Positions 4,286 to 50,298 of a stretch of 64,000 nucleotides of DNA are shown piece after piece; position 1 is the first letter of the stretch, and every line of letters starts with the position of its first letter. The translations under genes and the position numbers were made by a program. This stretch comes from Isurus oxyrinchus (lineage: Eukaryota): the NCBI GenBank assembly GCA_026770705.1, contig JANJGN010000010.1, positions 23,808,001 to 23,872,000 of the forward strand, read 5' to 3'. Under the pieces are notes generated by a model. It was not told where the DNA came from, made no database searches, and saw only the letters and a program-made list of their open reading frames with translations.

Positions 4286-4404
4286 CAAAAACAGGAAATG
4301 CTGGAATAACTCAGCAGGTCTAGCAGCCTCTGCAGAGAGAGAAACAGAGTTAACGTTTCGAGTCTGTATGACCCTTCTTCAGAACATATCAGAACATGTT
4401 CTTC
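4286..4404 (-). mobile_element. Penelope-derived mini-element with 13 bp TSD
   Basis: Penelope terminal sequence flanked by a perfect AAAACATTTGGGA at 4273-4285 and 4405-4417. Confidence 0.9.
4349..4385 (-). ncRNA. Minimal type I hammerhead ribozyme motif, canonical core
   Basis: Minus strand GUU-CUGAAGA-A-GGGUC(AUACA)GACUC-GAAA-CG-UU-AAC: core boxes, 5 bp stem II, palindromic ACGU stem III and 3 bp stem I. Confidence 0.75.
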
Positions 4405-4504
4405 AAAACATTTGGGATCTTTGTTCAACATCGGATCCAAAGAAGAGTATAAAAAACAAGGTAAAACTAACTGCATTAGAATGGTACCACTGAATAAAAT
4501 GATG

Positions 4505-4650
4505 CAACAATGACTTGTATTTATATGGCATCTTTAACATAGTAAAAGAAGCGTTATTTTTAAAAAACTGACATTGAGCCACATAAAGAGATATTAGGAC
4601 AGGTGACCAAAAACTTGGCCAAAGGGTAGGTTTGATGGAGTCTCTTAAAA
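4505..4650 (-). mobile_element. L2 LINE 3' tail
   Basis: ACTTGTATTTATATGGCATCTTTAAC...GGTGACCAAAAACTTGG, the same tail seen at ~48400 and ~57200. Confidence 0.65.
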
Positions 4651-5789
4651 CAATGTTGTCCAAGAGTATTTTGATGCTTGCCAAACTTATGGTGATCAGG
4701 TCATCATATTTGAAACATGATATAAAATATATGGACTATGAGTAAAATAAATGAATATAAGTTTGAGGTTTTAAACCATCAGTGATCGAGACCGATACAT
4801 TCACTACCAGAGTCAGGTAGCTTCAAAATGTTTTACAATCCAATTGTTCCGCAAAGCAAGCCTAATGCATACTCTCAGAGGATGGTAACAATCTGTTAAC
4901 TGAAGTGTTCTGTTTCTGATAGTGTGCTCAAGTTCATTTAAAACAAACAAATTTCCCCAAGAGTAAGCTGTCTCTATTTTGTCAGAAGTAATATATTAGG
5001 AGATTTGGGGAGGGAAAAAAAACAACAAATCTCCATGTATTGGTTTCTGTGCTCCAATTCTTACCTTGCTTATGTTCTGTCACCTGCCTTTTCTAAACAC
5101 AGTGTTTGGACATTTAATAATTCTTTGACTCATGGACAACCTCCTGTAATAAAAAGACAAAAAAGATTTGCATTTATATCTCCTTTTTCACAACCAATGA
5201 ATGTCACAGCATTCAGAGAGTTTAGACATTTCAAAGTTGTGTTTCTTTTCACCAATACTACAGTACTACATATTTAAACTCAAAGAAAGGAGTTAAAATA
5301 GAAGTTTGCCCAGGGTGCATTTCCCTAAGGCTGCTCATGGTTGTATTGATGTATTATCTAGAGTACCCATGCACCTCCATGGAAGAAAGCAGCCATGCAG
5401 AAATGCAACGTTAGACTGCCAAAAATAGAACAACTGGCTAATGGTGTACATTTTCCCACAACGGTGACCTTTGCCTGCTGCAGTACATACATGATATATC
5501 GTTTCTGTTGGTCAGGTTAATACTTGTAACAAAAAAAGTTAATGTGAATACATCATCATATCTCCTTATACTATAGATGTATATTTCCATGTAGCCAAGG
5601 AAATATAGAGGAGCAAGAAGGAACACCAGATTTGAGATACCATTTCAGGCAGACTTGAGAATGTTGAAGATGTTACCAGGTACTCAGTTAGGGAAGGGAT
5701 GGAATTTCCCTTTCCACTTTTCATTAAACATACATTGTGCCTTCATTCTGCTGGAAAGACTTTTTGTAATACTTGTTATTTCAACAGTT

Positions 5790-6430
5790 AGGAACATAGG
5801 AACAGGAGTAGGCCATTTGGCCTGTTGAGCCTGCTCCACCATTCAACTAGATCATGGCTGGTCTACTACCGCAACACCATTTTCCTGCGGTATCCCCATA
5901 TTCCTTGATGCAGCTACCATCTAAAAATCTATCGATCTCTGCCTTGAACATACTCAATGACTGAGCCTCCACAGCCCTCTGGGGTAGAGAATTCCAAAGA
6001 TTTACCATCCTCTGAATGAAGAAATTCCTCTTCATCTTAGTCTTACATGGCTTACCTCTTATTCTTATTCTGAGACTGTGTCCCCTGGTTCTACGCACCC
6101 TGCCACCACAGCAACCAGGAGAATCTTCCTGCACCTACCCTGTGGAACCCTGTAAGAATTTTATATGTTTCAATTATATCACCGCTCGTTCTTTTAAAAT
6201 CTAGAGAATACAGGCCCAGTCTCCTCAATCTCTCCTCATTGGACAACCCACCATCCCAGGGATCAGTTTGGTGAATCTTTGTTACACTCCCTCTATGGCA
6301 AGTATATACTTCCTTAAGTAAGGAGACCAAAATTGTACGTAATGCTCCAGATATTGTCTCACCAAGGCTCGATACAATTGCAGCAAGACAACTTTACTCC
6401 TGTACTCAAATCCTCTTGCAATAAAGGTCA
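5790..6430 (-). mobile_element. CR1 LINE 3' portion
   Basis: Minus-strand ORFs read EERLRRLGLYSL...GDIIETYKIL and RTRGHSL...RMVNLWNSLPQRAVEA; CR1 tail at 5790-5850. Confidence 0.92.
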
Positions 6431-6439
6431 ATTATATGG

Positions 6440-7975: not shown

Positions 7976-8179
7976 ACCCCTGGGGAACTCCACTGCAAAC
8001 CTCCGCAAGTCTAAAAAACATCCATTAAAAACTGTTTCCTGTCATTCAGCCAATTTCGTATCCATGTTACTACTGTCCCTTTCATTCCATAAACTGTAAC
8101 TTTGTTTACAAACCTTTTGTGCGGCACTGTATCATGTGCCTTTGGAAGTCTATGTACACCACATCAACAGCACTACCTT

Positions 8180-8347
8180 AATATAAAAGCAAAATATTGT
8201 GGATGCTGGAAATCTGAAACAAAAACAGAAAATGCTGAAATAACTCAGCAGGTCTAACAGCATCTGTGGAGAGAAAGACAGTTAACGCTTTGAGTCCATA
8301 TGACTCTTCTTCAGCTCTGAAGAAGAGCCATACGGACTTGAAACATG
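8180..8347. mobile_element. Penelope-derived fold-back mini-element with ~14 bp TSD
   Basis: TSD AACAGCACTACCTT (8166-8179) / AACAGCATTACCTT (8348-8361). Back-to-back degenerate hammerhead motifs are centred at ~8315. Confidence 0.88.
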
Positions 8348-8570
8348 AACAGCATTACCTTCATCAGCCCTCTCTGTTACCTCCTCAAAAAACTCCAGCA
8401 AGTTAGTCAAACAGGATTTCCCTTAACAAATCCATGCTGGCTTTCCTTAATTAACCTGCATTTATCCATGTGATTAATAATTTTGTCCCAAATTATTTTT
8501 CTAGAAGTTTCCCCACCACCAAAGTTAAACTGACTGGCCTATAGTTGCTGGGCTTATCTATTTTTGAACA

Positions 8571-8970: not shown

Positions 8971-9099
8971 AAATTCTCTAGTTCTCTGGTATCATCCGTA
9001 AGTCGAAGGAAGACTGGAAAATAACGGCCAGTGCCTCTGCAATTTCCACTCTCACTTCTCTCAGTATCTTTGGATGCATCTCATCTGCTTCTCCTTTCT

Positions 9100-10245
9100 T
9101 TTATTCATTCACAGGTTGTGGGCTTTGCTGACTGGGCCAGCATTTATTGCCCACTCCAAGTTTCCCTTGAGAAGGTGGTGGTGAGCTGCCTTCTTGAGCT
9201 GTTGCACTCTATGTGGAGTAGGTACACCCACAGTGCTTTTAGGAAGGAAGTTCCAGGATTTTGACGCAGCGACAGTGAAGGGACGGCGATATATTTCCAA
9301 GTCAGGATGGTGAGTGACTTGGAGGGGAACTTCCAGGTGGTGGTGTTTCCATCTATCTGCTGCCCTTGTCCTTGTAGATGGTAATGGTTGTGGGTTTGGA
9401 AGGTGCTGTCGAAGGAGCATTGATGAATTCCTGCAGTGCATCTTGTAGTTAGTACATACTACTGCCACTTTGCATCGGTGGTGGAGGGGGTGAATGTTTA
9501 TGGATGTGGTGCCAATCAAACAGGCTGCTTTGTCCAGGATGGTGTCAAGTTTCTTGAGTGTTGTGGGAGCTGCACTCACCCAGGCAAGTGGGGAGTATTC
9601 CATCATACTCCTGACTTGTGCCCTTGTAGATTGTGGACAGGCTTTGGGGAGTCAGGAGGTGAGTTACTCGTCTGGTCAATGGTAACCCCCAGGATGTGGA
9701 AAGTGGGGATTTAGTGATGGTAATGCCTTTCAACATCAAGGGGCGATGGAGATGGTCATTGCCTGGCACTTGTGTTGCTCAAATGTTACTTGCCACTTGT
9801 CAGCACAAGCCTGGATATTGTCCAGGTCTTACTGCATTTGGACATGGGACAGCTTCAGTATTGGAAGAGTTGCGAATGGTGCTGAACATTGTGCAATCAT
9901 CAGCGAACATCCCCAATTCTGACCTTATGATGGAAGGAAAGTTATTGCTGAAACAGTTGAAGATGGTTGGGCTGAGGACACTACCCTGAGGAACTCCTGC
10001 AGTGATGTCCTGCAGCTGAGATGACCGACCTCCAATAACCACAACCATCTTCCTTTGTGCAAGGTATGACTCCAACCAGTTTTCTCCGATTCCCATTGAC
10101 TCCAGTTTTGCTGGGTCTCCTTGATGCCACACTCGGTCAAATGCGGCCTTGATGTCAAGGGCAGTCACTCTCACCTCGAGTTCAGCTCTTTTGTCCATGT
10201 TTGAACCAAGGCTGTAATGTGTCAGGAGCTGGGTGGCCCAGGTAG
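9100..10245 (-). mobile_element. Second non-LTR family ('LINE-B', CR1/L2 group), RT and 3' end
   Basis: ALDIKAAFDRVWH, GVPQGSVLSPTIF, MFADD and MEYSPLAW...LDTILDKAA across frameshifted ORFs. Confidence 0.9.
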
Positions 10246-10271
10246 AACCCAAATTCCTGGTGCCTTACCAA

Positions 10272-10392
10272 CTAAAATGTTAACTCTCTTTCTCTTGATG
10301 TCTCTGCAGATGCTGCCTGACCTGCTGTGCACCTACCAGCGATTTTCTATTTCTATTTCAAATTCCCATCGAGCGTCCTTAGCATTTTGCTA
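10272..10392 (+). mobile_element. Penelope terminal-repeat fragment (degenerate)
   Basis: GCAGATGCTGCCTGACCTGCTG...CCAGC...TTCAAATTCC, the reverse orientation of the motif at 2551. Confidence 0.65.
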
Positions 10393-10529
10393 CAGCTTGG
10401 GGGTAAAGTCGGCTCGGAAAAAAACAAAAAGTTAGGAAATGACTGGTACTGGTCCGAGCTGTAGTTCCACATTGAGATATACAAAACCATTTCCGACCAA
10501 TCCCGGTTATTTACCAAGTTTACAGTTTC

Positions 10530-15700: not shown

Positions 15701-15719
15701 CTGGGGCTCCATGGTTTCC

Positions 15720-20127: not shown

Positions 20128-22596
20128 TATAAAAGCAAAAAACTGCGGATGCTGGAAATCCAAAACAAAAACAAAAATACCTGGAAAAACTCAGCAGGTC
20201 TGGAAGCATCTGTGGAGAGGAGCACAGTTAACATTTCAAGTCTGCATAACTCTTCAACAGAACTAAAGAAAAATAGGAAAGGGGTGAAATATAAGCTGGT
20301 TTAAGGGTGGGGGGGGGTGGGGGGGGTGGTGTTGGGTCAAGAAGAGCTAGGTAGAGGGCCAGTGATAGGTGGAGATAACCAAAAGATGTCACAGACAAAA
20401 GGACAGAGGTGTTGAAAGTGGTGATATTATCTAAAGGAATGTGCTAATTAAGGGTAGAAAGCAGGACGAGCAAGGTACAGATAGCCCTGGAAAAACTCAG
20501 CAGGTCTGGCAGCATTGGCGGAGAAGAACAAAGTTGACGTTTCGAGTCCTTGTGACCTTCAACAGATTCTCGTTCTGTTGAAGGGTCATGAGGACTCGAA
20601 ACGTGAACTTTGTTCTTCTCCACCGATGCTGCCAGACCTGCTGAGTTTTTCCAGGTATTTCTGTTTCTTGTTTTGAATTTCCAGCATCCGCAGTTTTTTG
20701 TTTTTATATTTATACAGATAGCCCTAGTGGGGGTGGGGTGAAGGAATTGAAAAAGGCTAAAAGGTACAGCTACAACAATGGATAGGAATACATTTAAAAA
20801 TAATGGAAATAGGTGGGAAAAGAAAAATCTATATAAATTATTGGAAAAAACAAAGGAGGGGGAAAATCGAAAAGGGAGTGGGGATGGAGGAGAGAGTTCA
20901 TGATCTAAAATTATTGAACTTAATATTCAGTCCAGAAGGCTGTAAGGTGCTTAGTCGGAAGATGAAGTACTGTTCCTCCAGTTTGCGTTGAGCTTCACTG
21001 GAACAATGCAGCAAGCCAAGGACGGACATGTGGGCATGAGAGCAGGGTTGAGTGTAGAAATGGCAAGCAACAGGGAGGTCTGGGTCATGCTTGCAGACAG
21101 ACCAAAGATGTTCTGCAAAGCGATCACCCAGTCTGCGTTCAGTCTCTCCAATGTACAGGAAACCGTATTGGGAGCAACAAATGCAGTAAACTAAGTTGGG
21201 GGAAGTGCAAGTGAAATGCTGCTTCACTTGAAAGGAGTGTTTGGGCCCTTGGACGGTGAGGAGAGAGGAAGTAAAGGGGCAGGTGTTGCATCTTCTACGG
21301 CTGTGTGGGAAGGTGCCGTGGGAGCGGGTTAAGGTGTAGGGGGTGATGGAGGAGTGGACCAGGGTGCCACACAGGGAACAATCCCTGCGGAATGCCGCCG
21401 GGGTGTGAAGGGAAGATGTGTTTGGTGGTGGCATCATGCTGGAGTTGGCGGAAATGGCGGAGGATGATCCTTTGAATGCAGAGGCTGGTGGGGTGATAAG
21501 TAAGGATAAGGGGGACCCTATCATGTTTCTGGGAGGGAGAAGAAGGTGTAAGAGCGGATGTGTGGGAAATGGGTCGGACACGTTTGAGGGCCCTGTCAAC
21601 CACTGTGGGTGGAAAACCTCAGTTAAGGAAGAAGGAGGACATGTCAGAGGAACTGTTTTTGAAAGTGGCATCATCAGAACAGATGCGACAGAGGCAAAGG
21701 AACTGAGAGAATGGGATGGAGTCCTTACAGGAAGCGTGGTGTGAGGAACTGTAGTCGAGGTAGCTGTGGGAGTCGGTAGGCTGAGGTAGCTGTGGGACTC
21801 GGTAGGCTTGTAATGGATATTGGTGGACAGTCTATCACCAGAGATTGAGACAGAGAGATCAAGGAAGGGAAGGGAAGTGTCAGAGATGGACCATGTGAAA
21901 ATGATACAGGGGTGGAAATTGGAAGCAAAATTATTAAGTTTTTCCAGGTCCAGATGAGAGCGTGAAGCAGCACCGAAGTAATCATTGATGTACCGGAGAA
22001 AAAGTTGTGGAAGGGGGCCAGAGTAGGACTGGAACAAGGAATGTTCCACATTCCCCATAAAGAGACAGGCATAGCTGCGGCCCATGCTGGTACCCATAGC
22101 CACACCTTTTATTTGGAGGAAGTGAGAGGAGTTGAAGGAGAAATTGTTTAGTGTGAGAACAAGTTCAGCCAGACGGAGGAGAGTAGTTGTGGATGGGGAT
22201 TGTTCGGGCCTCTGTTCCAGGAAGAAGTGGAGAGCCATTAGACCATCCTGGTGGGGGATGGAGGTGTGGAGGGATTGGATGTCCATGGTGAAGAGGAGGT
22301 GGTTGTTGTCAGGGAACTGGAAATTGTTGATATGATGTAGGTGGGAAGGGACTGGACAAGGGGAGAGAGAATGGAGTCAAGATTGCAAGAAATGAGTTCC
22401 GTGGGGCAGGAACAGGCTGCTGGGACAGTTCTGTTTGTGGATTTTGGGTAGGAGTTAGAAGCAGGCTGTTGGAGTTTGGGAGACTATCAGGTTGGAAGCT
22501 GTGGAAGGAAGATCTTCAGAAGAGATGAGGTCAGTAACAGTCCTGGAAACAATGGCTTAATGTTCAGTGGTGGGGTCATGGTCCAGGGAGAGGTAG
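20128..22596 (-). mobile_element. Penelope-like retroelement P1 (5'-truncated; RT + GIY-YIG endonuclease)
   Basis: MDIQSLYTSI, QIKGVAMG, FLRYINDYF, LPFLDL and VYCICCSQYGFLYIGETERRLGDRFAEH...PSGLN; 3' terminal repeat at 20128-20890. Confidence 0.93.
20489..20712. mobile_element. Fold-back hammerhead mini-element nested in P1, 13 bp TSD
   Basis: Inverted arms around ~20570; TACAGATAGCCCT at 20476-20488 and 20713-20725. Confidence 0.9.
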
Positions 22597-24957: not shown

Positions 24958-25950
24958 AAGCAAGTGGCAGATGGCCCTAGTGGGGGTGGGGTGGGGGGAA
25001 GGGATCGAAATGGGCTAAAAGGTGGAGATAAAACAATAGATCAAAATAAATTTAAAAATAGGTGCAGAAGGTGCAACACCTGCTTTATCCCCCCACCCCT
25101 CCTCACCGTCCAAGTGCCCAAACACTCCTTTCAAGTGAAGTAGCACTTCACTTGCACTTCCCTCAATTTAGTCCACTGCATTCGCTGTTCCCAATGCGGT
25201 CTCTTCTACATTGGAGAGACCAAACGCAGACTGGGTGACCGCTTTGCGGAACACCTTCAGTCTGTCTGCCAGCATGATCCAGACCTTCCTGTCACTTGCC
25301 ATTTCAACACACCACCCTGCTTTCATGCCCACATGTCGGTCCTTGGCCTGCTGCAATGTTCCAGTGAAGCTCAACGCAAACTGGAGGAACAGCACTTCAT
25401 CTTCTGACTAGGCACTTTACAGCCTTCTGGACTTAATATTGAGTTCAACAATTTCAGATCATGAACTCTCTCCTCCATCCCCACCCCCTATCCGATTTCA
25501 CCCCCCCCCCAAATAATTTATAATTTAAAAAAAAGTTTTCTTTTCCCACTTATTTTTAAATTTATTTCGATCTGTTGTTCTATCTCCACCTTTAGCTCAT
25601 TTCAATCCCTCCCCCCACCCCCACTAGGGCCATCTGCCACTTGCTTGTCCTGCTTGCTACCCTTAATGTCCCCATTAGCACGTTCCTTAAATAATATCAC
25701 CACCGTCAACACCCTTTTGTCCTTTTGTCTATGACATCTTTGGCAATTTCTTCTTTGCCTGCACCTATCACTGGCCCTCTATCCAGCTTTACCTGTCCCA
25801 CCCCCCTCTACCAGCTTATATTTCACCTCATTTCTCTATTTCCTTAGTTCTGATGAAGAGTCATATGGACTCTAAACGTCAAATGTGTTCCTCTCCGCAG
25901 ATGCTGTCAGACCTGCTGAGTTTTTCCAGCTATTTTTGTTTTTGTTTCAA
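24958..25950 (+). mobile_element. Short Penelope copy (GIY-YIG end + 3' repeat) with a 5' inverted segment
   Basis: VHCIRCSQCGLFYIGETKRRLGDRFAEHL on the plus strand; 24958-25062 is an inverted copy of ~25545-25650. Confidence 0.9.
25846..25884 (+). ncRNA. Hammerhead motif, sense to the host gene, G12 mutated
   Basis: AGUU-CUGAUGA-A-GAGUC(AUAUG)GACUC-UAAA-CGUC-AAAU; GAAA>UAAA, so likely inactive. Confidence 0.6.
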
Positions 25951-26019
25951 CTTTTAGTATGTTGTGTTAACATTTGCATGCTTCAGCAGCACTTATGCAC
26001 CACAGTAAACCTGTTTTTA

Positions 26020-26220
26020 AAAAGAGAAAATGCTGGAAATGTTATACTCGGGTCAGGCAGCGCCTGTGGAGACAGTGAGTTAAGGTTGCAATTCTGTTGG
26101 AAGGTCATTGGCCTAAGCCATTAGTTCTATTTCTCAACAGATGCTGCCAGACCTGCTGATAATTTCCAATGTTTTCTCTTTTTATTTTAGTTTTCCAGCA
26201 TCCACAACATTTTATATTTA
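26020..26220. mobile_element. Penelope-derived fold-back mini-element (degenerate)
   Basis: AAATGCTGGAAAT...GGTCAGGCAGC left arm; CAGATGCTGCCAGACCTGCTGA...TTCCAGCATCC right arm. Confidence 0.75.
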
Positions 26221-28714: not shown

Positions 28715-30990
28715 TTTATCCTTTGGGATGTGGGCATTGCCAGCTAGATGAGCATTTATTGCTCATCTCTCATTGTCCTTGTGGTGATCTTGAATCACGT
28801 TCTTGAACTGCTGCAGTTCATGTGATGCAGCTATACCCACTGCTGTAACGAAGGGTGTTCCAGGATTTTGACCTAGTGACAGTGAAGGAACAATGATATA
28901 CTTCCAAGTCAGAATGCAGCGTGGCTTGGAGGGGGACTTGCAGGTGGTGGTGTTCCCATGGATTCGGTGTCCTGCCTTTCTAGGTGGTAGAGGCCACAGG
29001 TTTGGAAGGTGCTGTTGAAGGAGCTTTGGTAAGTTGCTGCAATGCATCTTGTCAGTGGCACACAGTTGCCACTGTGTGCATTGATGGTGGAGGGATTGAA
29101 TGCGTAAGGTGTTGGACTACTTTGTCCTGGGTGTTGTTGAGCTTCTTGAGTGTTGGAGCTGCACTCATGCAGGCAAGTGGAAAGTATTCCATCACACTCC
29201 TAACTTGTGCCTTGTAGATGGTGGACAAGCTTTGGGGATTCAGAAGGTGCCGCAGGATTCCCAGCCTCTGACCTGCTCTTGTGGTCACAGTATTTATATG
29301 GCTGGTCCAGTCCAGTTTCTGGTCAATGGTAACCCCCAGGATGTTGTTGAGGATTTAGCAGTAGTAAAGCCATTGAATGTTAAGGGGAGATGATTAGATA
29401 ATCTCTTGGAAATAGTCATTGCCTGGCACTTGTGTGGCGTAAACGTTACTTGTCACTTATCAGCCTGAACCTGAATGTTGTCTGGGTCTTGCTGCATATT
29501 GGCATTGGGTGCTTAAGTACCTGAGGAGCCTGGAATTGTGCTAAATATTTTGCAACCATCAGCAAACAACCCAATGTCAGACCTTACGATGGAAGGAAAG
29601 TCATTGACAAAGCAGCTGAAGATGGTTGGCCTCAGGACACTACCATGATGGATTCCTGCGCTGATGTTCTGGGACAACCACAACTATCTTCCTTTGTGCT
29701 AGGTATGACTCCAACCAGTAGATAATCTCCCCCTCCCCGATTCCCATTGACTTCAGGTTTAAGGCTCCTTGATGCCACACTTGGTCCTTGATGTCAAGGA
29801 CAGCTACTCTCACCTCACCTCTGGAGTTCAGCTCTTTTGTTCATGTTTGGACTTAGGCTATAATGAGGTCTGGAGCTGAATGTCCCTGGTGGAGTCCAAA
29901 CTGAATGTCAGAGCAGGTCATTGTTGAGTAAGTACCCCCTGATAGCACTGTCGACAATTCCTTCTATCACTTTGACCAAGAGTAGACTGATGTAGCAGTA
30001 ATTTGCTGGGCTGGATTTGTCCTGCTTTTGTGGATAGGAGATACCTGGGCAATTTTCCACATTGCTGGGTAGGTGGCATGTTGTAGCCACACTAGAACAG
30101 CGTGGCTTGGGGCATGGCTAGTTCTGGAGCTCAAGTCTTCAGCACTGAGGCTGGAATGTTGTCGGGGCCCATAAGTTTGCAGTATTCAGTGCCACCTTGA
30201 TAACACATGGAGTGAATCAAATTGGCTGAAAACTGGCATCAATGATGCTGGGGACTTCAGGAAGTGTCCAAGTTCATCATACAGTCAGCACTTTTGGCTG
30301 AAGATAGCTGTAAATGCCTAAGCCTTGTCTTTTGCACTGATATGCTGGGCTCCTACATTGAGGGTGGAATATTTGTGGAGCCACCTCCCCCAGTTGGTTG
30401 TTTAATTGTCCAGTGCTATTCATGACTGGATGTGGCAGGACTGCAGAGCTTGGGTCTGATCTGTTGGTTGTGGGATAGCTTAGCTCTGTCAATTGCATGC
30501 TGCTTTTCCTGCTTGTCAAGCAGGTAGTCCTGTGTTGTACCTTCACCAGGCTGATACCTCATTTTTAGATAAAAGCAAAATACTGCCGATACTGGAAATC
30601 TGAAACAAAAACAGAAAATGCTGGTAAAACTCAGCAGGTCTAGCAGCATCTGAGGAGAGAGAAACTGGTTAACGTTTCAAGTCCGTATGACCCTTCTGAA
30701 GGGCCATACGGACTCGAAACATTGACTCTGTTTCTCTCTCCACAGATGCTGCTAGATCTGCTGAGTTTTTGCAGCATTTTCTGTTTCTGTACCTCGTTTT
30801 TAGGTATGCTTGGTGCTGCTCCTGGCATGCCCTCCTGCACTCTTCTATGAACCGGGGTTGATCCCCCCCCTCCCCCTTGATGGCAATGGTAAAGTGAGGG
30901 ATATGCCAGGTCATGAGGTTACAGATGGTGTTTGAAAACAACTCTACTGTTGCTGATGGCCCACAGTGCCTCAAGGATCCCTAGTTTTGA
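28715..30990 (-). mobile_element. LINE-B copy (~2 kb, decayed RT), interrupted by a Penelope mini-element
   Basis: IYKAQVRSVMEYFPLA, KQDKSSPANY and WHIPHFTIAIK...QPRF; same 3' tail as the 9100 copy. Confidence 0.88.
30569..30789. mobile_element. Fold-back mini-element with ~14 bp TSD
   Basis: TACCTCATTTTTAG (30555-30568) / TACCTCGTTTTTAG (30790-30803); arms mirror around ~30697. Confidence 0.9.
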
Positions 30991-32860: not shown

Positions 32861-35576
32861 ATTTTTAATTAGGGTTACAGATTGTTTTAACCTGATTTCC
32901 AAGCTCACTGCTGTCCTCCCTATCTTGTGTTTCTCCATAATTTGATAGATCAGTCCTTAAAGTTCAATGTAATAGTGTGAAACTTAGCATTTCACAAGGT
33001 ATTTATAAGTATGTAACAGGATATTATTTCAGAGTTTTCAATAAGTGAATCTTCCTGAAGGATGGCCAGATGTAGAAATCAGTTTTTCACATAATTTGGC
33101 TGTACATCAAATTCTGTTCCATGTGACTTATTATGAAAAGAGAGAATTTTAGCTGTGCAATTTAACCTATGCAGTGGCTCTCCTGAAGTTGCTTTAAGGA
33201 TTCTAAAGGAACAAAAGTCAAGTGGTATACATTTTCCCTTGGGGATGAAACATTTTTTTAACTTGCTGAACTGTAATTTTCATTTGTCCACACAAATAGT
33301 AAGAACATGTTTTGTGCAGTGCTATCCTGCATGAGAGGAATATTGTTTAGAGAAGGGAGGTTTCTATTGGGTATAAGCTGGGTCACGAAAAAGGATCAGA
33401 ATTTTGCTTTCTCAAAAATTACCATTACAATGCCAAAGGTGCAATAACACATAGAAATTTTAGGTAAATATTTTGAGTTAAGGAGAAAAACTATCTGGAC
33501 ACAGGAAGGGTAGGCTGTACTGCATTCGGTCTGTTCAAAGTGGAGACTTCCATACAAATTAATGTAGTTGCTCTGTAATGCAGATGGAGTTCAGTAGTTA
33601 AACCATGCAATTTGAACATGTCCAGTTGTGTGAGCACATCTGAAGTGGCATATCTCCATGAGTGGCGATGTGTGACAAAAATCAAGATCAAGATACCTGG
33701 TAACAGTTAACACCTTCAGATTTGAAAGAAAATGCATATGCGTATTTTCTAATACCCCTTTCATCAGTCATTTTTCCACCTTTTATGAAAGAATAATAAT
33801 TTGGGGCATTCAATATATCAATAGGAAATCATGAGGGAAGGAAATACCAAGACATTAGCAATTTAAGAACTTTGCCATAGTTTTACCAGGTGATCCTCAC
33901 AATCTTTCTTTACAAAGCCCATTGTGAGCTTCATCCTCAGCCACTTGGCTTTTGTCAGACATTGTATCTCTGTCTGTAATCAGAAGGTATTCTTTGACAT
34001 TGTAACTTAAGAGGCTCATGCCAGTCAGAAAATTGAAATATTTAAATCAATTTTCAGATTGCTCTAACAGCTTGGACATGTACATATTTACAACATACTA
34101 CAGGTAACAAAACTTGACCTTGGATTTCTCATCTTCATTGAGTTAGCATCAATCAATCTTGACGTATAGTTTCAACATTTTTATTGAACATCATAGTTCT
34201 TGTCCAGCGAATGACAGCCATTATGGCTGTTGCTGCTATCTTTTGTTGAGGCACAATTTCCTGCACTACAAGCTTGTGCACTGTTCAGCAAAAAAGGTTT
34301 GTGATCATCTTATTCTGTTGTCAAGATTGTCCTAATGCAGTTCATTGCAATGGAAATACATCAAACTTCGTTTGAAAAAATGCCTGAGACCTTCTCAGGG
34401 AGAGAAATGAGAGATCTTGAAAAATGCACTGTGTATGAACCTATGGAGCTGAAAGAAAGTATTGAGGGTTGCATAATTCTTGGAATTTCCCAAGTACCTG
34501 CTCAATTCTAAAACTTCTAATCAATGTTGAGCGAAAGGAGTACTTAGGATGATGGAAACATTACATTTCTAACTGACCCTGGGCAGTAATACCTTTTACA
34601 GATGCAGAAATAATTGAGTTCTGATGCAGCTTCATACTTGCAAGCCAATTTGGCCTGTCCAATTTGGATTTAGCAGAGGAGCCCATTCAACAGTATCTCT
34701 CAAAAGTGAGAGTGAATGCAGGGATGGAATGGAGAATCTGATGCAAGCATGGACAAGCTGTTTAAAGGGAAGTAAACTGGTGTTCACTTTTCCCCCTCTG
34801 ACGCCCTTTTTCTTCCTTCCCCCGCAAGACAATGGCAATTTCTTGATTGATAATCCTAACATTCCTTTTATTTGGCGGCGGGGGGTGGTAGTGTCTGATT
34901 GTCATTATTAAATATATTTCAAAATAAAATAATTGTGCAACAGCATGGTACCATAATGAGCAACAGGAGTGGAATTATTTTGGGTAGTCCAAGTATTGCA
35001 GTATTGATTCAATGGAGATGGTACCTAAGTATTTTGTTCTGGTTTATTTTACTCCTCAAGGTGATGGCTTTGCAAGTAATGACAGATGGACCTTTGTTGA
35101 TTTCTGATGCGATCCTGGACAGTGCATATTGTTGAGCCATAACAATTGGTCCTGTTGCACTCTTCACCAATGCCTGCACTTTAAATATATTGGACATCCA
35201 TTGGAAACCAGCAGGTAGTATAACCTAGCCCCAGGGTGCAGAGACCATGTTTAACCTGTTGTTGAGATTGACTGGCTTACTTTGCACCACACCAGAGATC
35301 GAATCTGCCCTGTACCTCCCCAATAAATTGTTTTTAAAAATTTGTTCTTGTAATGTGAGTGACCTGTTATCTGAGGACATGGGCTCAATCACGTTGTGTA
35401 GAATGAGTCACGTAGGGCACCTGGATATGTGCAACAGGTCCTTTCCTGTTGGCTATTAAACCGGTTGAGTTTCATTGCAATAAAAACAAAAAACTGTGGA
35501 TGCTGGAAATCCAAAACAAAAACAGAATTACCTGGAAAAACTCAGCAGGTCTGGCAGCATTGGCGGAGAAGAAAAG

Positions 35577-35615
35577 AGTTGACGTTTCGAGTCCTCATGA
35601 CCCTTCAACAGAACT
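35577..35615 (-). ncRNA. Minimal hammerhead motif with variant core (CUGUUGA)
   Basis: AGUU-CUGUUGA-A-GGGUC(AUGAG)GACUC-GAAA-CG-UC-AACU. Confidence 0.65.
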
Positions 35616-38478
35616 GAGTGAATCTAAGGAGAGGGGTGAAATATAAGCTGGTTTAAGGTGGTGGTGGAGGAGGAGGGGGGGTGGGTGGAGAGAAGTGTGG
35701 TTGCAGGGACAAGCAAGCAGTAATAGGAGCAGATAATCAAAAGATGTCACAGACAAAAGAATACAGAGGCGTTGAAGGTGGTGATATTATCTAAACGAAT
35801 GTGCTAATTAAGAATGGATGGTAGGGCACTCAAGGTACAGCTCTAGTGGCGGTGGGGTGGAAAGGCTAGCAGGGCATAAAAGATTTAAAAATAATGGAAA
35901 TAAGTGGGAAAAGAAAAATCTATATAAATTATTGGAAAAAACAAAAGGGAGGGGAAGAAACAGAAAGTGGGTGGGGATGGAGGAGGGAGTTCAAGATCTA
36001 AAGTTGTTGCATTCAATACTCAGTCCGGAAGGCTGTAAAGTGTCTAGTCGGAAGATGAGGTGCTGTTCCTCCAGTTTGCGTTGGGCTTCACTGGAACAAT
36101 GCAGCAAGCCAAGGACAGACATGTGGGCAAGAGAGCAGGGTGGAGTGTTAAAATGGCAAGCGACAGGGAGGTTTGGGTCATTCTTGAGGACAGACCACAG
36201 GTGTTCTGCAAAGCGGTCGCCCAGTTTGCTTTTGGTCTCTCCAATGTAGAGGAGACCGCATTGGGAGCAACAAATGCAGTAGACTAAGTAGAGGGAAATG
36301 CAAGTGAAATGCTGCTTCACTTGAAAGGAGTGTTTGGGCCCTTGGACGGTGAGGAGAGAGGAAGTGAAGGGGCAGGTGTTGCATCTTTTGCATGGGCATG
36401 AGGAGGTGCCATAGATGGGGGTTGAGGAGTAGGGGGTGATGGAGGAGTGGACCAGGGTGTCCCGGAGGGAACGATATCTACGGAATGCCGCTGGGGGGGG
36501 TGAAGGGTAGATGTGTTTGGTGGTGGCATCATGCTGGAGTTGGCGGAAATGGCGGAGGATGATCCTTTGAATGCGGAGGCTGGTGGGGTGATAAGTGAGG
36601 AGAAGGGGGACCCTATCATGTTTCTGGGAGGGAAGAGAAGGCGTGAGGGTGGATGTGCGGGAGATGGGCCGGACATGGTTGAGGGCCCTGTCAACGACCG
36701 TGGGTGGAAAACCTCGGTTAAGGAAGAAGGAGGACATGTCAGAGGAACTGTTTTTGAAGGTAGCATCATCAGAACAGATGCGACGGAGGTGAAGGAACTG
36801 AGAGAATGGGATGGAGTCCTTACAGGAAGCAGGGTGTGAGGAGCTGTAGTCGAAGTAACTGTGGGAGTCGGTAGGCTTCTAATGGATATTGGTGGACAGT
36901 CTATCGCCAGAGATTGAGACAGCGAGGTCAAGGAAGGGAAGGGAAGTGTCAGAGATGGACCATGTGAAAATGATGGAGGGGTGGAAATTGGAAGCAAAAT
37001 TAATAATTTTTTCCAAGTTATGACGAGAACATGAAGCAGCACCGAAGTAATCATCGATGTACCGGAGAAAGAGTTGTGGAAGGGGGCCGGAGTAGGACTG
37101 GAACAAGGAATGTTCCACATACCCCATAAAGAGACAGGCATAGCAGGGGCCCATGCGGGTACCCATAGCTACACCTTTTATTTGGAGGAAGTGAGAGGAG
37201 TTGAAGGGGAAATTGTTCAGTGTGAGAACAAGTTCAGCCAGATGGAGGAGAGTAGTTGTGGATGGGGATTGTTTGGGCCTCTGTTCGAGGAGGAAGCTAA
37301 GGGCTCTCAGACCATCCTGGTGGGGGATGGAGGTGTAGAGGGATTGGATGTCCATGGTGAAGAGGAAGCGTTAGGGGCCAGGGAACTGGAAATTGTTGAT
37401 GTGGCGTAAGGTGTCAGAGGAATCACGGATGTAGTTGGGAAGGGACTGGACAAGGGGAGAGAGAAGGTAGTCAAGATAACAAGAAATGAGTTCCGTGGGG
37501 CAGGAGCAAGCTGAGACGATCGGTCTACCAGGACAGTTCTGTTTGTGGATTTTGGGTAGGAGGTAGAAGCGGGCTATCCGAGTTTGGGCGACTATCAGGT
37601 TGGAAGCTGTGGGAGGAAGATCTCCAGAGGAGATGAGGTCAGTGACAGTCCTGGGAACAATGGCTTGATGTTCAGTGGTGGGGTCATGGTCCAGGGAGAG
37701 GTAGGAGGAAGTGTCTGCGAGTTGACGCTCAGCCTCCGCGAGGTAGAGGTCAGTGCGCCAGACAACAACAGCACCACCCTTGTCAGCATGTTTGATGACA
37801 ATGTCAGGGTTGGACCTGCGAGAATGGAGTGCAGTAAGTTCAGAGAGAGAGAGATTAGAATGGGTGAGAGGAGCAGAGAAATTGAGACGACTAATGTCAC
37901 GCCGACAGTTCTCAATGAAAAGATCAAGAGAAGGTAAAAATCCAGAGGGAGGGGTCCAGGTGGAGGGAGAATATTGGAGGTGGGTGAAAGGATCCGTTGA
38001 ATGGGGAGAGGACTCCTGCCCAAAGAAGTGAGCCCGGAGATGAAGACGGCGGAAGAAGAGTTCAGCATCATGCCGAGCCCGAAATTCATTGAGGTGAGGG
38101 CGTAAGGGTATGAAACTAAGTCCTTTGCTGAGCACTGAACGTTCAGCATCAGAGAGGGGAAGGTCAGGGGGTATAGTGAATACACGGCTGGGGTTGGGAT
38201 TGGAAGATGGGGTGGGGACGGAGGGACAGGCAAGGGTGGAGGGTCCTAGATGGGTGTTGGTGTCGATGAGTTGTTGGAGTTGTTGTTGTGCCCTACCATC
38301 CATTGTTAATGAGCATATTCATTTTGATAATATCACCCCCTTCAACGCCTGTGTTCTTTTGTTCCTTTGTGACATCTTTCCTATCAGTGCTTGCTTGTCT
38401 CTACAACCACACCACAACTCTCCCCCCCACCCCAACCTTAAACCAGCTTATATTTCACCCCTCTCCTTAGATTCACTC

Positions 38479-38517
38479 AGTTCTGTTGAAGCGTCATGAG
38501 GACTCGAAACGTCAACT
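38479..38517 (+). ncRNA. Minimal hammerhead motif with variant core, sense to the host intron
   Basis: AGUU-CUGUUGA-A-GCGUC(AUGAG)GACUC-GAAA-CG-UC-AACU in the inverted repeat of P2. Confidence 0.6.
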
Positions 38518-38872
38518 ATTTTCTTCTCCGCCGATGCTGCCAGACCTGCTGAGTTTTTCCCGGTAATTCTGTTTTTGTTTTGAGTTTCATTGCAACTTGC
38601 ACAACTTCTTCCCCAACAACACTGATGTTTCCAGAGTTAAGTTTCTCATTAAACCTCACTGTTCAGAGTTCTGTATTTGCCCAAGATTGCCCATATGATG
38701 TTGCTCCCTTTTCCTGATGCAGTCTGTCCCCTTGGATGAAGTTATGAATTAACTAGCTTACTTAAGTTGTCCTGAAAATGAAGGGGAGCACAAATGTGAT
38801 ACAAATTAAGTATTGTATTTAATGCCTGAATATTTAATATTCAGAAACTGAACTGGACTAGCCATATAAATA

Positions 38873-41493
38873 AAAACAGAATTACCTGGAAAAACTCAGC
38901 AGGTCTGGCAGCATCGACGGAGAAGAAGAGTTGACGTTTCGAGTCCTCATGACCCTTCGACAGAACTTGAGTTCGAGTCCAAGAAAGAGTTGAAATATAA
39001 GCTGGTTTAAGGTGTGTGGGGGGCAGAGAGAGAGAGAGAAGTGGAGGGGGTTGGTGTGGTTGTAGGGACAAACAAGCAGTGATAGAAGCAGATCATCAAA
39101 AGCTGTCACAAACAACAGAACAAAAGAACACATAGGTGTTAAAGTTGGTGATATTATCTAAACGAATGTGCTAATTAAGAATGAATGGTAGGGCACTCAA
39201 GGTATAGCTCTAGTGGGGGTGGGGGGAGCATAACAGATTTTAAAATGTTTAAAAATAATGGAAATAGGTGGGACAAGAAAAATCTATATAATTTATTGGA
39301 AAAAAACAAAAGGAAGGGGGAAACAGAAAGGGGTTGGGGATGGAGGAGGGAGCTCAAGACCAAAAGTGGTTGAATTCAATATTTAGTCCGGAAGGCTGTA
39401 AAGTGCCTAGTCGGAAGATGAGGTGTTGTTCCTCCAGTTTGCGTTGGGCTTCACTGGAACGATGCAGCAAACCAAGGACAGACATGTGGGCAAGAGAGCA
39501 GGGTGGAGTGTTAAAATGACAAGCGACAGGGAGGTTTGGGTCATTCTTGCGGACAGACCGCAGGTGTTCTGGAAAGCGGTCGCCCAGTTTACGTTTGGTC
39601 TCTCCAATGTAGAGGAGACCACATTGGGAGCAACGAATGCAGTAGACTAAGTAGAGGGAAATGCAAGTGAAATGCTGCTTCACTTGAAAGGAGTGTTTGG
39701 GCCCTTGGACGGTGAGGAGAGAGGAAGTGAAGGGGCAGGTGTTGCATCTTTTGCGTGGGCATGGGGTGGTGCCATAGGAGGGGGTTGAGGAATAGGGGGT
39801 GATGGAGGAGTGGACCAGGGTGTCCCAGAGGGAGCGATCCCTATGGAATGCCGATGGGGGGGGTGAAGGGTAGATGTGTTTGGTGGTGGCATCATGCTGG
39901 AGTTGGCGGAAATGGCGGAGGATGATCCTTTGAATGCGGAGGCTTGTGGGGTGATAAGTGAGGAGAAGGGGGACCCTATCATGTTTCAGGGAGGGAGGAG
40001 AAGGCGTGAGGGTGGATGCGCGGGAGATGGGCCGGACACGATTGAGGACCCTGTCAACGACCATGGGTGGAAAACCTTGGTTAAGGAAGAAGGAGGACAT
40101 GTCAAAGGAACTGTTTTTGTAGGTAGCATCATCGGAACAGATGCGACGGAGGCGAAGGAACTGAGAGAATGGGATGGAGTCCTTACAGGAAGCGGGATGT
40201 GAGGAGCTGTAGTCAAGGTAGCTGTGGGAGTCGGTGGGTTTGTAATGGATATTGGTGGACAGTCTATCACCAGAGATTGAGCCAGTGAGGTCAAGGAAGG
40301 GAAGGGAAGTGTCAGAGATGGTCCACGTGAAAATGATGGAGAGGTGGAGATTGGAAGCAAAATTAATAAATTTTTCCAAGTCCTGACGAGAGCATGAAGC
40401 AGCACCGAAGTAATCATCGATGTACCGGAGAAAGAGTTGTGGGAGGGAGCCGGAGTAGGACTGGAACAAGGAATGTTCCACCTACCCCATAAAGAGACAG
40501 GCATAGCTGGGGCCCATGCTGGTACCCATAGCCACACCTTTTATTTGGAGGAAGTGAGAGGAGTTGAAGGAGAAATTGTTCAGTGTGAGAACAAGTTCAG
40601 CCAGACAGAAGAGAGTAGTTGTGGATGGGGATTGTTTGGGCCTCTGTTCGAGGAAGAAGCTAAGGGCCCTCAGACCATCCTTGTGGGGGATGGAGGTGTA
40701 GAGGGATTGGATGTCCATGGTGAAGAGGAAGCGTTAGGGGCCAGGGAACTGGAAATTGTTGATGTGACGTAAGGTGTCAGAGGAATCACGGATGGGAAGG
40801 GACTGGACAAGGGGAGAGAGAAGGTAGTCAAGATAACGAGAAATGAGTTCTGTGGGGCAGGAGCAAGCTGAGACGATCGGTCTACTGGGACAGTTCTGTT
40901 TGTGGATTTTGGGTTGGAGATAGAAGCGGGCCGTCCGAGGTTGGGCGACTATCAGGTTGGAAGCTGTGGGAGGAAGATCCCCAGAGGAGATGAGGTCAGT
41001 GACAGTCCTGGAAACAATAGCTTGATGTTCAGTGGTGGGGTTATGGTCCAGGGAGAGGTAGGAGGAAGTGTCTGCGAGTTGACGCTCAGCCTCCGCGAGG
41101 TAGAGGTCAGTGCGCCAGACAACAACAGCACCACCCTTGTCAGCATGTTTGATGACAATGTCAGGGTTGGACCTGCGAGAATGGAGTGCAGTAAGTTCAG
41201 AGAGAGAGAGATTAGAATGGGTGAGAGGAGCAGAGAAATTGAGACGACTAATGTCGCGCCGACAGTTCTCAGTGAAAAGATCAAGAGAAGGTAAGAATCC
41301 AGAGGGAGGGGTCCAGGTGGAGGGAGAATATTGGAGGTGGGTGAAAGGATCCGTTGAATGGGGAGAGGACTACTGCCCAAAGAAGTGAGCCCGGAGACGA
41401 AGACGGCGGAAGAAGAGTTCAGCATCATGCCGAGCCCGAAATTATTTGAGGTGAGGGCGTAAGGGTATGAAACTAAGTCCTTTGCTGAGCACT
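38873..41493 (-). mobile_element. Penelope-like retroelement P3 (5'-truncated), inserted into a LINE-B copy, 11 bp TSD
   Basis: ORF 39354-40481 (RYIDD...GIY-YIG); CCATATAAATA at 38862-38872 and 41499-41509; LINE-B sequence continues across the insertion. Confidence 0.95.
38929..38967 (-). ncRNA. Minimal hammerhead motif with variant core (CUGUCGA)
   Basis: AGUU-CUGUCGA-A-GGGUC(AUGAG)GACUC-GAAA-CG-UC-AACU. Confidence 0.65.
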
Positions 41494-41498
41494 ATATA

Positions 41499-42090
41499 CC
41501 ATATAAATACTTGGCTACATGGGCAGGTCAGAGGCTTGGGGACAGACTCGCCAAAGCCTGTCCACAATCCAAAAGGCACAAGTCAGGAGTGTGATGGAAT
41601 ATTCCCCACTAGCCTGGATGAGTGCGGTTCCCTCAACACTCGAGAAGCTTGACACCATCCAGGACAAAGCAACCTGCTTAATTGACACTACATCCATAAG
41701 CATTCACTCCCTCCACCACTGCTGCACAATAGCAACAGTGTGTGCCATTTACAAGATGCACTGCAGGAATTCACCAATGCTCCTTCAGCAGCACCTTTCA
41801 AACCCATGACCACTACCATCTAGAAGGACAAGGGCAGCAGATAGATCGGAACACCACCACCTGGAAGTTCTCCTCCAAGTCACTCGCAATCCTGATTTAG
41901 GAATGTATCACTGTTCCTTCACTGTCATTGGGTCAAAACCCTGGGACTCCCTAACAGCACTGTGGACGTACCTACATCACATGTACTGCAGCAGTTCAAG
42001 AAGGCAGCCCACCACCACCACTTCAAGGGCAACTGGGGATGGGCAATAAATTTTGGCCCAGCCAGTGAAGCCCACATCCCGTGAATAAAA
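41499..42090 (+). mobile_element. LINE-B 3' end (its 5' stub is at ~38842-38872)
   Basis: KAQVRSVMEYSPLAWMSA...LDTIQDKA...IYKMHCRNSP; tail GGGCAATAAA...CCCACATCCCGTGAAT. Confidence 0.9.
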
Positions 42091-43294: not shown

Positions 43295-43421
43295 NNNNNN
43301 NNNNNNNNNNNNNNNNNNNNNNNNNNNNNNNNNNNNNNNNNNNNNNNNNNNNNNNNNNNNNNNNNNNNNNNNNNNNNNNNNNNNNNNNNNNNNNNNNNNN
43401 NNNNNNNNNNNNNNNNNNNNN
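43295..43421. other. Assembly gap (N run)
   Basis: Run of N. Confidence 0.99.
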
Positions 43422-47267: not shown

Positions 47268-47845
47268 GAAGCAAGATACTGTGAATGCTGGAAATCTGAA
47301 ACAAAGCGATTGCTGGAAATACGCAGGAGGCTAGGCAGCATTTGTGGAGAGAGAAACAGAGATAATGTTTCAGGTCTGTGATCTTTGACCAGAACTGGGG
47401 AAAGGAAACTCTGTGATAGGGTGGAAGACAGGAAAGGTTGAATGACAGAAAAGTTAGTCTTCCAGGGCTAAAAGGAATGGTGATGGGTCAAGAAAAAAAA
47501 CAAAAAAACAAAAGATGTGCCTAGAGCAGGTGTGCTGCTGTGTCTCCTGTCTTCCGACTTATCACATATCTTCCTCTTGTCCTTGTCCAACCTGTCCCTT
47601 ACTCAAAACCTATTCAATTTCTAACTTTTCCCAGTTCTGATGAAAGGTTGCAGACCTGAAATGAAGCTCCAATTTTTGATACGTGAAGGGAACAAACTGC
47701 ATACATTGATTATCAAGAATAGTTCAGTAATTATGTAGCTGGTCAGCAGAATCTCTACCAAACTGATTCTGATGAAGATTCCACATCTTAAACATTATAA
47801 TTTCGCCTCTCTCTTGTGTATTTCCAGCATTTTCTGTTTTCATTT
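47268..47845. mobile_element. Penelope-derived fold-back element(s) with degenerate hammerhead motifs
   Basis: Terminal motif at 47270-47400; plus-strand AGTT-CTGATGA-A-AGGTT(GCA)GACCT-GAAA at 47633-47661; second CTGATGA at 47769; inverted terminus at ~47805-47845. Confidence 0.75.
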
Positions 47846-49274
47846 AGCACATCCTGGTGCGCAATAGAGATTAATGAATGTGGAAGGGGTTGCTTCTGTC
47901 TTCTATCTTTCCCATATTTTTGGATGAAAGTCAAGTCACTGTTATTAATGACTATGTCACCTGAACAGAAACTGTGCAAAAGGCATCTATTATCTGTTGA
48001 CTCCAAATAGCAAAACACATTGTGTAATGCCTAGCTATTCTAGTCCTGTAGTTTTCTGGCAGTCATTTTCTAAGCTGTTTTACTGTATTTATTCTGCCAA
48101 AATTCAGAACTTTGCTTTAAGGTGGGAAGTGGAGTCCCACAACAATGAGTGCAGGTACCACTGTTATTTACAACTTGTATAGATGACTTAGAGTTTAGAA
48201 TCAAGTTCAGAAGTTTATAAATTGCAAATAATACCAAATTGGGGGGTAATGGTCAATTATGAGGAGAACTACAACAAATTACAAGAAGACAACAATAAAC
48301 TTGTAGGATGGACATACATTTCATTGGGAAATGTATTTCAATATAGAGAACTGAAATTTGCAATTCCTTCTTGTGTAGTGAGAACTGTAAACCTCACAAC
48401 AATGCACTTATATAGTACCTTTAACCTAAAATGTCCTAAGATGCTCCACAGATCTGCAATAGATAAAACTGAATACTAAGCCAAAGAAGGAACCATCAGG
48501 AGAGGTGACTAAAAGTTTGCTTGAAGGAGTGAGTTTCAGGAAGAGATGAAGTAGTTCAGGGAGGGATTCCAGAACACAGGACTTAGATTGCTGAAGGCAT
48601 GGTTGTTGGCGTAGAGCAAAGGGAAGGTTGGATGTACAAAGGCAAGAGTCAAAAGAACAAATATTCTTGTGACCTTTTGGGGGGGGGCAGGGTTGTGACC
48701 TTTATGGTGTTATAGAGCTGGTGGATGTTACAGAGTTAGATAGGGCAAGGCAATAAAGGAATTCAACCATTGGAATGGTTTTAAATTTGAGGCTTTGGAG
48801 GATGTGAAGCCAATGTAGTTCAGCAAGGAAAGGAGTGATGGGTAGGTAGAATAGATACCATTTTGAATTTAACAGAGCATAGTGGGGGAGAGCATTGGAA
48901 TAGTCTTATCTAAAGGTGTCAGAAACATGAATTACAATTTCAGCAGAAAATAGATGGAGGCAGGCGGTGTTGAAATAGGTGGTTTTTGTGATGGAAGGTA
49001 TAGAATTGGAAACTCGGGGTTGACTGGGATGCTGCTGCAAGTAGTGTAGTTCAATCTGTGATGGAGGTTGAAGAGGGTGATGGAATTGGGAGCAGGGCAC
49101 AGCTTGTGGCACTCAAAATGGTGGCTTGGTGTGCCCAATTTTTCACTGGAGGAAAATGTGGCTCACCCAGACAGGATATCGGACAGAGTCTTAATAGCTC
49201 AGTGGAGGCACCGAGAAAGGTGATGGAGCAGTATGTTTGGATTTCGTCAGTGTCCCTGTTGAAACTGACATTGG

Positions 49275-50065
49275 ATTACATAGGATATACGGCACAGAAA
49301 CAGGTCATTCAGCCAACCCAGCCCATACCAGTGCTTATGCTCCATTGGCAGCCTCCCAGCTTCTCACCTAAATCTGTCATCGTAACCCTCTATTCCTTTC
49401 TCCTTTATCTGCTTGTCCAATTTTCTTTTAAATGCATCTATGGTTTTTGGTTCAACCATGCTCTGTCATAGTGAGTGCCACGTTCTCACCACACTTTGGG
49501 TGAAGAAATTTCTTTGGAATTTCCTTTTGGATCTCCTGGTGACAATCTTATGTTGTTAGCATCTAGTTATGTTCTTCCCCACCAGTGGAAACATTCTCTC
49601 TATTCACTCTATCAAAATCTTTCATAATTTTAAAAACCTTTTTATTAGGTAACCCCTCAGCTGCCTTATTTAAAGAGAGAAGAGACCCAGCCTGTCAATT
49701 CTTTCCTGATATGAATACCATTTCTGGTATCATTCTTGTAATTCATCACTGCACCCTCTTCTGTGCCTCTATATCTTTTTTTATAATATAGCAACCAGAG
49801 CTTCACGCAGTACTCTTGTAGTCTAACCAAAATTTGATACAGATTTATCATAACTTCCCTACTTTCCAATTTTATCCCTCTACAAATATAGTCAAGTACC
49901 TGGTTTTAATAGCCTTGCTAACCTGTGGTGTGACCTTTATTGATGTGTGTGTTTGTACTCACTTTATTCCTTTACCCCACCTAGACTCTCACCTTTCAAT
50001 TAATAGTTGACTTTCCTATTCTTCTGGCTAAAATGTACTTTCTCACATTTGACAATTGTTTGCCC
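49275..50065 (-). mobile_element. CR1 LINE 3' portion
   Basis: SREVMINLYQILVRLQEYCVKLWLLYYKK on the minus strand; tail at ~49280-49330. Confidence 0.8.
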
Positions 50066-50180
50066 ATTCTTTAGATGGGCAGCATGTAAATGAGGAAGTG
50101 GGCTGGCCAAAGGTAGACTCTTAGTTAACTCTACAATGATGATGCAGGGGTAGGAAGAGAGGTCATTACTGGAGATGTTC

Positions 50181-50298
50181 AGTTCCAAAGAAGAGTCATA
50201 TTAGACTCTTAGCTCTGTTTCTCTCTCCACAGACGCTGCAAGACCTGCTGATTTTTTTTTATTTCGGGGTCCCAACATCCGCAGTATTTTGCTTTTAC
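50181..50298 (+). mobile_element. Penelope terminal fragment with decayed hammerhead
   Basis: AGTTCCAAAGA-AGAGTC(ATATTA)GACTC, then CTCTCTCCACAGACGCTGC...CATCCGCAGTATTTTGCTTTTA. Confidence 0.7.

Follow-up and report, generated by a model that had tools for sequence, protein, structure and literature searches.

Minimal type I hammerhead ribozymes in the terminal repeats of Penelope-like elements (PLEs) were described by Cervera and De la Peña (2014), who reported an extra nucleotide, a palindrome, copies that stand alone or on opposite strands, and dimers of low activity (PMC4209133). In Poseidon of Anolis carolinensis, the hammerhead cuts only with its protein (Frangieh et al. 2024), and the anole PLE hammerhead was dispensable for insertion in vitro (PMC11167929). 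Because these two papers describe the motif class and the behaviour of PLEs, the class is already known; the function of hammerheads for PLEs has been called unclear in print (PMC8557442). In other hammerheads, the core substitution A6C reduces cleavage but keeps it (PMC7151607, PMC3088659), and one cartilaginous fish was included in a preprint on retrozymes without long terminal repeats (non-LTR retrozymes; bioRxiv 10.64898/2026.07.22.740005). Here we analyse 64,000 nucleotides of the shark Isurus oxyrinchus (assembly GCA_026770705.1, contig JANJGN010000010.1, positions 23,808,001 to 23,872,000, forward strand), hereafter the window, in which many copies of a Penelope-like element carry such a motif. 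Judged from sequence, the dominant subfamily of this element probably has an attenuated, protein-assisted hammerhead in which A6U has become fixed, with uncut RNA as the template for copying; we give this reading a probability of roughly 0.6.

The motif agrees feature by feature with the published description (PMC4209133): stems I and II, an extra nucleotide after A9, a palindromic 15.2-16.2, an NUH triplet and a place in the pseudo-long terminal repeat (pseudo-LTR) are all present, in line with the first-pass annotation of the window, which had read it as a minimal type I hammerhead in a ribozyme-retroelement system. The extra A after A9, the ACGU palindrome in place of stem III and the stem II variants GGGUC/GACUC, GAGUC/GACUC and AGGUY/GACCU are there as that annotation claimed. 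Its core formula, CUGnnGA, fits the copies and masks a U, not an A, at position 6 of the young ones; the class was right, and the departure of the dominant subfamily from A6 passed unflagged. The conserved core CUGANGA occurs in the older subfamilies and is lacking in the young one, and for this reason the young motif is filed as a variant. Because a normally fixed catalytic letter has been swapped in the youngest and most abundant version, a slowed-down ribozyme is likely.

Exact genome copies with identical flanks numbered 70,493 for U6, 106 for A6 and 143 for a U4A control; since A6 and control are similar in number, the A6 copies lie at the level of point mutation, and the young subfamily is fixed for U6. 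Sampling large contigs at even spacing (116 stretches of 10 kb, 1.16 Mb) yielded 135 matches, 75 of them near full and 70 with an ungapped 5′ core; extrapolation to the 4.98-Gb genome gives roughly half a million copies. Among the 70, A6 was carried by 9 of 9 copies of the oldest group and 25 of 30 of the middle group, and U6 by 30 of 31 of the young group. The nearest-neighbour flank distance was 0.029 for U6 copies versus 0.148 for A6 copies (n = 36 and 37), so the U6 copies are younger, and a rough flank-only tree placed the young U6 group within A6 copies. Hand counts of the first 100 exact copies gave A6 in 87 for the oldest stem type (290 copies in all), and A6 in 43 and U6 in 57 for the middle stem type (7,401 in all). 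As U6 already occurs with the older stem, it arose first, and the later fixed changes follow it: N7, loop II, the 10.2 pair from A-U to G.U (pairing kept) and H17 from U to C. The last moved the triplet from GUU to GUC, one of the two fastest cleavage triplets (PMC3138052), while C3, U4, G5, G8, A9, G12-A15.1 and U16.1 stayed unchanged.

The fold of the U6 hammerhead appears to be still maintained by selection. That the changes after A6U avoided every other catalytic position while the triplet moved to GUC speaks against a possibility that we regard as a minority one, namely that A6U killed catalysis and the sequence was kept because it overlaps an internal promoter or a structure that binds protein and is required for copying. 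Such a relic would agree with the block in the 3′ flank, which is likewise well conserved, with Naiad elements, which are described as thriving without hammerheads (PMC8557442), and with Xenopus dimers, 8 of 9 of which stayed uncut in the preprint on retrozymes (bioRxiv 10.64898/2026.07.22.740005). What is new here, and in our view the added value of the analysis, is that the most successful subfamily has a core substitution that became fixed, surrounded by a series of changes that can be dated. No paper on an A6U Penelope hammerhead was among the literature matches listed, with subscription papers, Repbase and the supplements of the 2026 preprint on retrozymes outside the search.

In the window, a profile of the element's 3′ end detected 20 copies, versus none in reversed decoys, and direct inspection added a 21st at 47633, outside the profile set. 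The full descriptor with CUGnnGA matched five times, versus 0.1 expected by chance (30 simulated windows, three matches in all). Four of these matches lie on element copies, with C3 at 4382, 20260, 35611 and 38963, all on the minus strand, and the fifth, at 27359, looks unrelated to the element; among the window copies, only 4382 passed the canonical CUGAnGA descriptor. The motif copies and stubs are as follows.

4348..4386, minus strand: complete minimal hammerhead with canonical A6 core and GUU triplet, older subfamily, in a solo 3′ stub (4278-4386)
35577..35615, minus strand: complete minimal hammerhead with U6-U7 core and GUC triplet, young subfamily
38929..38967, minus strand: complete minimal hammerhead with U6-C7 core and GUC triplet, youngest subfamily
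20226..20264, minus strand: U6 hammerhead of an intermediate subfamily, with wobble changes in the stems
38479..38517, plus strand: U6 hammerhead with one stem II mismatch, within an inverted 3′ copy (38288-38588)
25846..25884, plus strand: hammerhead with A6 and the change G12U; decayed element (25063-25947), motif at its 3′ end
47633..47668, plus strand: oldest-type motif with AGGUU/GACCU stem II and broken 3′ core
50180..50296, plus strand: decayed 3′ stub, GAAA core deleted
8183..8359, both strands: head-to-head inverted pair, A6 subfamily, two broken cores
20477..20707, both strands: head-to-head inverted pair of 3′ stubs, predicted long hairpin, motifs at 20532-20566 (minus) and 20571-20609 (plus)
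30569..30798, both strands: head-to-head inverted pair, each arm truncated inside the 5′ core
2552-2673 (minus) and 2793-2849 (plus): two extra decayed stubs, found by the profile
10272..10391, plus strand: extra decayed stub, found by the profile
26018..26213: extra decayed inverted pair, found by the profile
47268..47857: two extra old stubs, at 47268-47397 (minus) and 47769-47857 (plus), found by the profile

The first-pass annotation had listed 11 of these places, and the motif or its decayed remains were recovered at all of them on the strands it gave; the decayed stubs at 2552-2849 and 10272..10391 and the decayed inverted pair were absent from its list. Its wording of copies as intact or decayed is right in that both kinds occur, and the majority are broken. 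The damage comprises G12A at 8281, G12U at 25846, U16.1A at 47633, H17=G at both 8312 and 20571, loss of GAAA at 50181, a C.U mismatch in stem II at 38479 and 5′ truncation of the pair at 30668. At the three sites that it had entered for both strands, motif remains do occur on both, in what are predicted to be long hairpins, not hammerheads (-152.6 and -135.3 kcal/mol for two of the three pairs). No Rfam covariance model matched the window at its gathering score, and no hammerhead match at E ≤ 10 was found within 19500-51000; the Rfam microRNA matches of the window coincide with the inverted pairs.

We regard as very improbable that the motifs resemble hammerheads by chance, or that the host recruited them as a control system for the surrounding gene. 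Such a view could appeal to the failure of Rfam to recognise them and to the greater density of copies in the window (21 in 64 kb) than in the genomic sample; yet the descriptor matches lie far above chance, the motif is a near match to a published Acropora Neptune motif (PMC4209133), every copy sits at the same place in a transposon, and the majority of those in the window are broken. The window copies are best explained as passive insertions, mostly broken, without a role for the host gene.

The covariation alignment that the first-pass annotation had proposed as a check revealed compensatory stem II changes between subfamilies in two of five pairs. At pair 10.1-11.1, the middle and young copies have G-C and the oldest have A-U, and none of 2000 shuffles reached the observed pairing; pair 10.2-11.2 is A-U, G.U or G-C, with 69 of 2000 shuffles reaching it; the remaining three stem II pairs did not covary. 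Natural A6 copies in the same background have a stronger predicted misfold (-9.8/-11.3 kcal/mol), and the hammerhead lies above the best fold by 1.4-2.4 kcal/mol with U6 versus 3.9-5.4 kcal/mol with A6; a role of U6 as the maker of an off-state hairpin was therefore rejected.

Several of these results weigh against an attenuated ribozyme. Stem II itself served to define the oldest group, and the covariation amounts to about two inherited events, so that the support it gives is modest, and the flank tree has only 65 columns and an unsettled bootstrap. For U6 motifs, the hammerhead is in no case the sole predicted minimum: the monomer reaches -5.9 kcal/mol in this fold, with minima of -7.3/-8.3 kcal/mol; the double hammerhead reaches -10.1 kcal/mol versus -18.2/-22.7 kcal/mol for other dimers, and the probability of stem II is at most 0.02 in a context of 150-190 nt. 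No published cleavage test of A6U was found in the literature searched. Moreover, since U6 weakens the competing helix, it need not lower net activity. This last point, together with the fixation of GUC only after U6, would suit a compensated variant in which the A6 contact was lost and a misfolding helix (5′ core with CGUCA) removed, net cleavage being kept and regulating the RNA as before. We consider such compensation improbable: in a fast hammerhead at 0.3 mM Mg, the loss caused by A6C reached four orders of magnitude (PMC7151607, PMC3088659), and the fold energies ignore tertiary structure and protein.

The motifs of the window sit in the 3′ untranslated regions (UTRs) of element copies (35480-38287, 38868-41493, 20129-22596, 25063-25947) or in stubs of that end. 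The longer bodies are as follows.

35480..38287, minus strand: 5′-truncated Penelope-like element with stop-broken reverse transcriptase (RT) and GIY-YIG, 3′ UTR, hammerhead and tail; RT piece at 36879-37370, GIY-YIG piece at 35991-36878
38868..41493, minus strand: second 5′-truncated element, broken open reading frame (ORF)
20715..22596, minus strand: truncated body of an older element, with 87% identity to the intact ORF

All ORFs of the element in the window are broken; intact natural 918-aa ORFs, 98-99% identical to one another, occur at three loci elsewhere in the genome (L184, L189 and L190), and the two long window copies (35480-38287 and 38868-41493) are 95% identical to the intact ORF. 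It is a single ORF with an RT (RVT_1, E 6.7e-8) as well as a GIY-YIG at its C-terminus, the latter with an E of 9e-4, below Pfam's cut-off. A C-x4-C-xx-C linker precedes the endonuclease (EN), and linker and EN motif were found in 100 of 121 proteins (query and homologs). A CX2-5CxxC linker between RT and EN is a mark of Neptune and Nematis (PMC8557442); the element is probably of Neptune type, an assignment by a linker common to both groups. The best named homologs of its protein are from Chiloscyllium punctatum (64-68% identity), and none of the protein matches was a named Neptune reference. A 286-aa overlapping frame on the same strand recurs within the ORF in many young copies (L179-L191) and is probably a by-product of codon use.

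Each end of a full-length copy carries a motif, with about 3.2-3.4 kb between the two; the one upstream lies about 170 nt before the ATG (169 nt in L189) and the second in the 3′ UTR. Pseudo-LTRs, partial tandems, inverted 5′-truncated copies and a tail of 30-40 bp, as in EN-bearing PLEs, are all present. We number positions on the element strand from C3 of the hammerhead core (0), which puts C17, the predicted cut, at +30. Most of 138 BLAST pieces have their 3′ ends at +93..+105 or +127..+131, at the known tail; the insertions run well past the cut site, which is kept intact and uncut at both ends. Between a conserved block and stem I lies a hypervariable stretch, -25..-5 (e.g. window 35616-35636), of which the young copies show at least six variants, one of them repeating part of the 3′ arm of stem II. 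A drop in RNA depth at the 5′ edge of the motif is confounded by this stretch and was not used. In older copies, +28..+55 (e.g. window 20205-20235, minus strand) resembles a branch point, pyrimidine tract and CAG acceptor directly after the cut site, and the acceptor-like AG has been lost from the young subfamily. Intron retention is known for Penelope elements.

Four further runs, of which three were from coded organisms and one from a metagenome (their RNA status mostly guessed), also had contigs with the family. With pieces restricted to those at least 85% alike, no letter besides U reached 5% at position 6; this cut excludes older A6 copies, and the comparison does not prove identity. One run labelled as a coral metagenome (X12) contains contigs of the element, with carry-over of host DNA likely. 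No descriptor match was found at 11 metagenome loci, all of them distant or partial.

The 5′ ends were determined for 41 young copies in 120 stretches, with the arms of pairs counted apart and 68 upstream references; BLAST-derived ends overstate the peak at -5, and the counts are taken from the former set. Fifteen ends lay beyond -45, six at -45..-13, 14 at -12..+11 and six at +12..+27, and none of the 41 at the cut (+28..+33). By analogy with Drosophila Penelope, for which an internal promoter is described (PMC2377424), the cluster at the motif would fit an RNA 5′ end nearby, with reverse transcription starting in the upstream repeat. Genome-wide, 1,005 truncation-type matches fell in +27..+39. 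Among the first 100, counted by hand, 14 start at +31, eight of them inversion joints with microhomology, and 13 at +28; a pile-up at the cut was rejected because the matches at +31 are mostly inversion joints and +28 has nearly as many. The clustering where an internal promoter would lie, the retained uncut site and the lack of a clear pile-up would all suit the catalytically dead relic; a step at the cut site in the head-to-tail junctions may point the other way.

Searches for such junctions gave five matches with the upstream unit ending at +9..+25, an anchor that requires a longer upstream unit and so lowers the count, and 46 at +26..+42, about 34 of which are independent by hand count. 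Three of these end before +30, six at +30, eight at +31, two at +32, eight at +33 and seven later. The ends thus step at the scissile bond without an exclusive peak. The downstream control, +43..+59, is equally rich (54 matches); for this reason the junctions are suggestive only and were set aside as proof of cleavage. Microhomology, a preference for C ends or protection by the folded core explains the step as well. The A6 family gave five head-to-tail matches only.

Our preferred reading, the attenuated U6 hammerhead, would accommodate these ends as follows. The transcript may start near the 5′ edge of the motif, and reverse transcription would start internally, at one of two tail sites: a start in the downstream repeat would yield full copies, and one in the upstream repeat short solo or inverted stubs. 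Uncut RNA would serve as the template. Cleavage after GUC would require two motifs paired through ACGU, or help from protein, and would cost the template pool a minority of its RNAs.

A bolder extension, which we consider doubtful, starts from tandem units at three loci, L185, L186 and L187, with three, three and nine units, each ending at C17 or one base after. According to it, A6U detuned the ribozyme, more template stayed uncut, and a burst to more than 70,000 copies followed; U6 would still cut in the germ line, and the units of 35-40 nt, running from the RNA 5′ end to exactly C17, would be DNA records of the 5′ cleavage product made by a telomerase-like RT through repeated template jumps, and would show retrozymes being born. 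At another locus (L188, G000:C267:338000-347999), the unit of a 2.7-kb tandem array includes two U6 motifs arranged head to tail. Within the window, hammerhead units formed no independent tandem array, and short arrays are rare elsewhere in the genome.

Around the copies, about 5 kb of C/T-rich low-complexity DNA with a tandem array of 22-29 bp at its end (10500-15740) lies just upstream of the first seen exon and yields long spurious ORFs. That GC-rich coding exon (16392-16633, plus strand, GT donor at its end) appears similar to the N-terminus of liprin-alpha; neither Pfam nor PDB gave a match for it. Of the motifs downstream of this exon, the three that are complete by the descriptor lie antisense, and all sense copies are damaged, numbers too small for a test. 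Decayed LINE-type RT fragments, presumably CR1/L2-like, lie at 797-1402, 6091-6393, 9109-10264 (RVT_1 match at 9800-10264), 28763-29354 and 41507-41809.

The series A6/GUU, U6/GUU, U6/GUC, dated and accompanied by intact young ORFs, allows one to gauge to what extent cutting was retained by the most successful elements, and whether amplification goes along with a weaker form of it; it is a natural test of whether Penelope-type elements need RNA cutting at all. The largest subfamily of this shark genome would escape any search that demands CUGANGA.

Compared with known systems, the shark element resembles non-LTR retrozymes in having tandem hammerhead units from Penelope terminal repeats, three to nine in L185-L187; its units are 35-40 nt long, whereas the shortest consensus of the preprint has 51, and they lie inside single insertions, with no sign of independent spread and none in the window (bioRxiv 10.64898/2026.07.22.740005). 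Phage Bcep176 likewise shows a natural substitution at position 6, A6C, with the rest of the core kept, but at one locus, whereas A6U is fixed in tens of thousands of copies of a minimal, dimer-type motif (PMC3088659, PMC7151607). With Poseidon, the element shares two internal reverse-transcription starts that define the tail, uncut RNA as probable template and the lack of ends at the cut site; it differs in its Neptune-type linker, its non-canonical core and in being known from sequence alone, and the Poseidon motif overlaps the ATG, whereas the shark motif lies upstream of it (PMC11167929). The hammerheads of PMC4209133 are closest: they too are type I without intramolecular stem III, with a palindromic 15.2-16.2, an extra nucleotide after A9, G10.1-C11.1 (here in the middle and young groups), a short stem I and one motif per terminal repeat, most copies being solo or on opposite strands, and the nearest listed motif is that of Acropora digitifera Neptune. 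All 56 representatives of its Fig. S3, none from a cartilaginous fish, have A6, where the dominant shark subfamily has U6, which the descriptor used there may have excluded; and the copy number in the shark is far above the largest reported in that paper, about 9,000.

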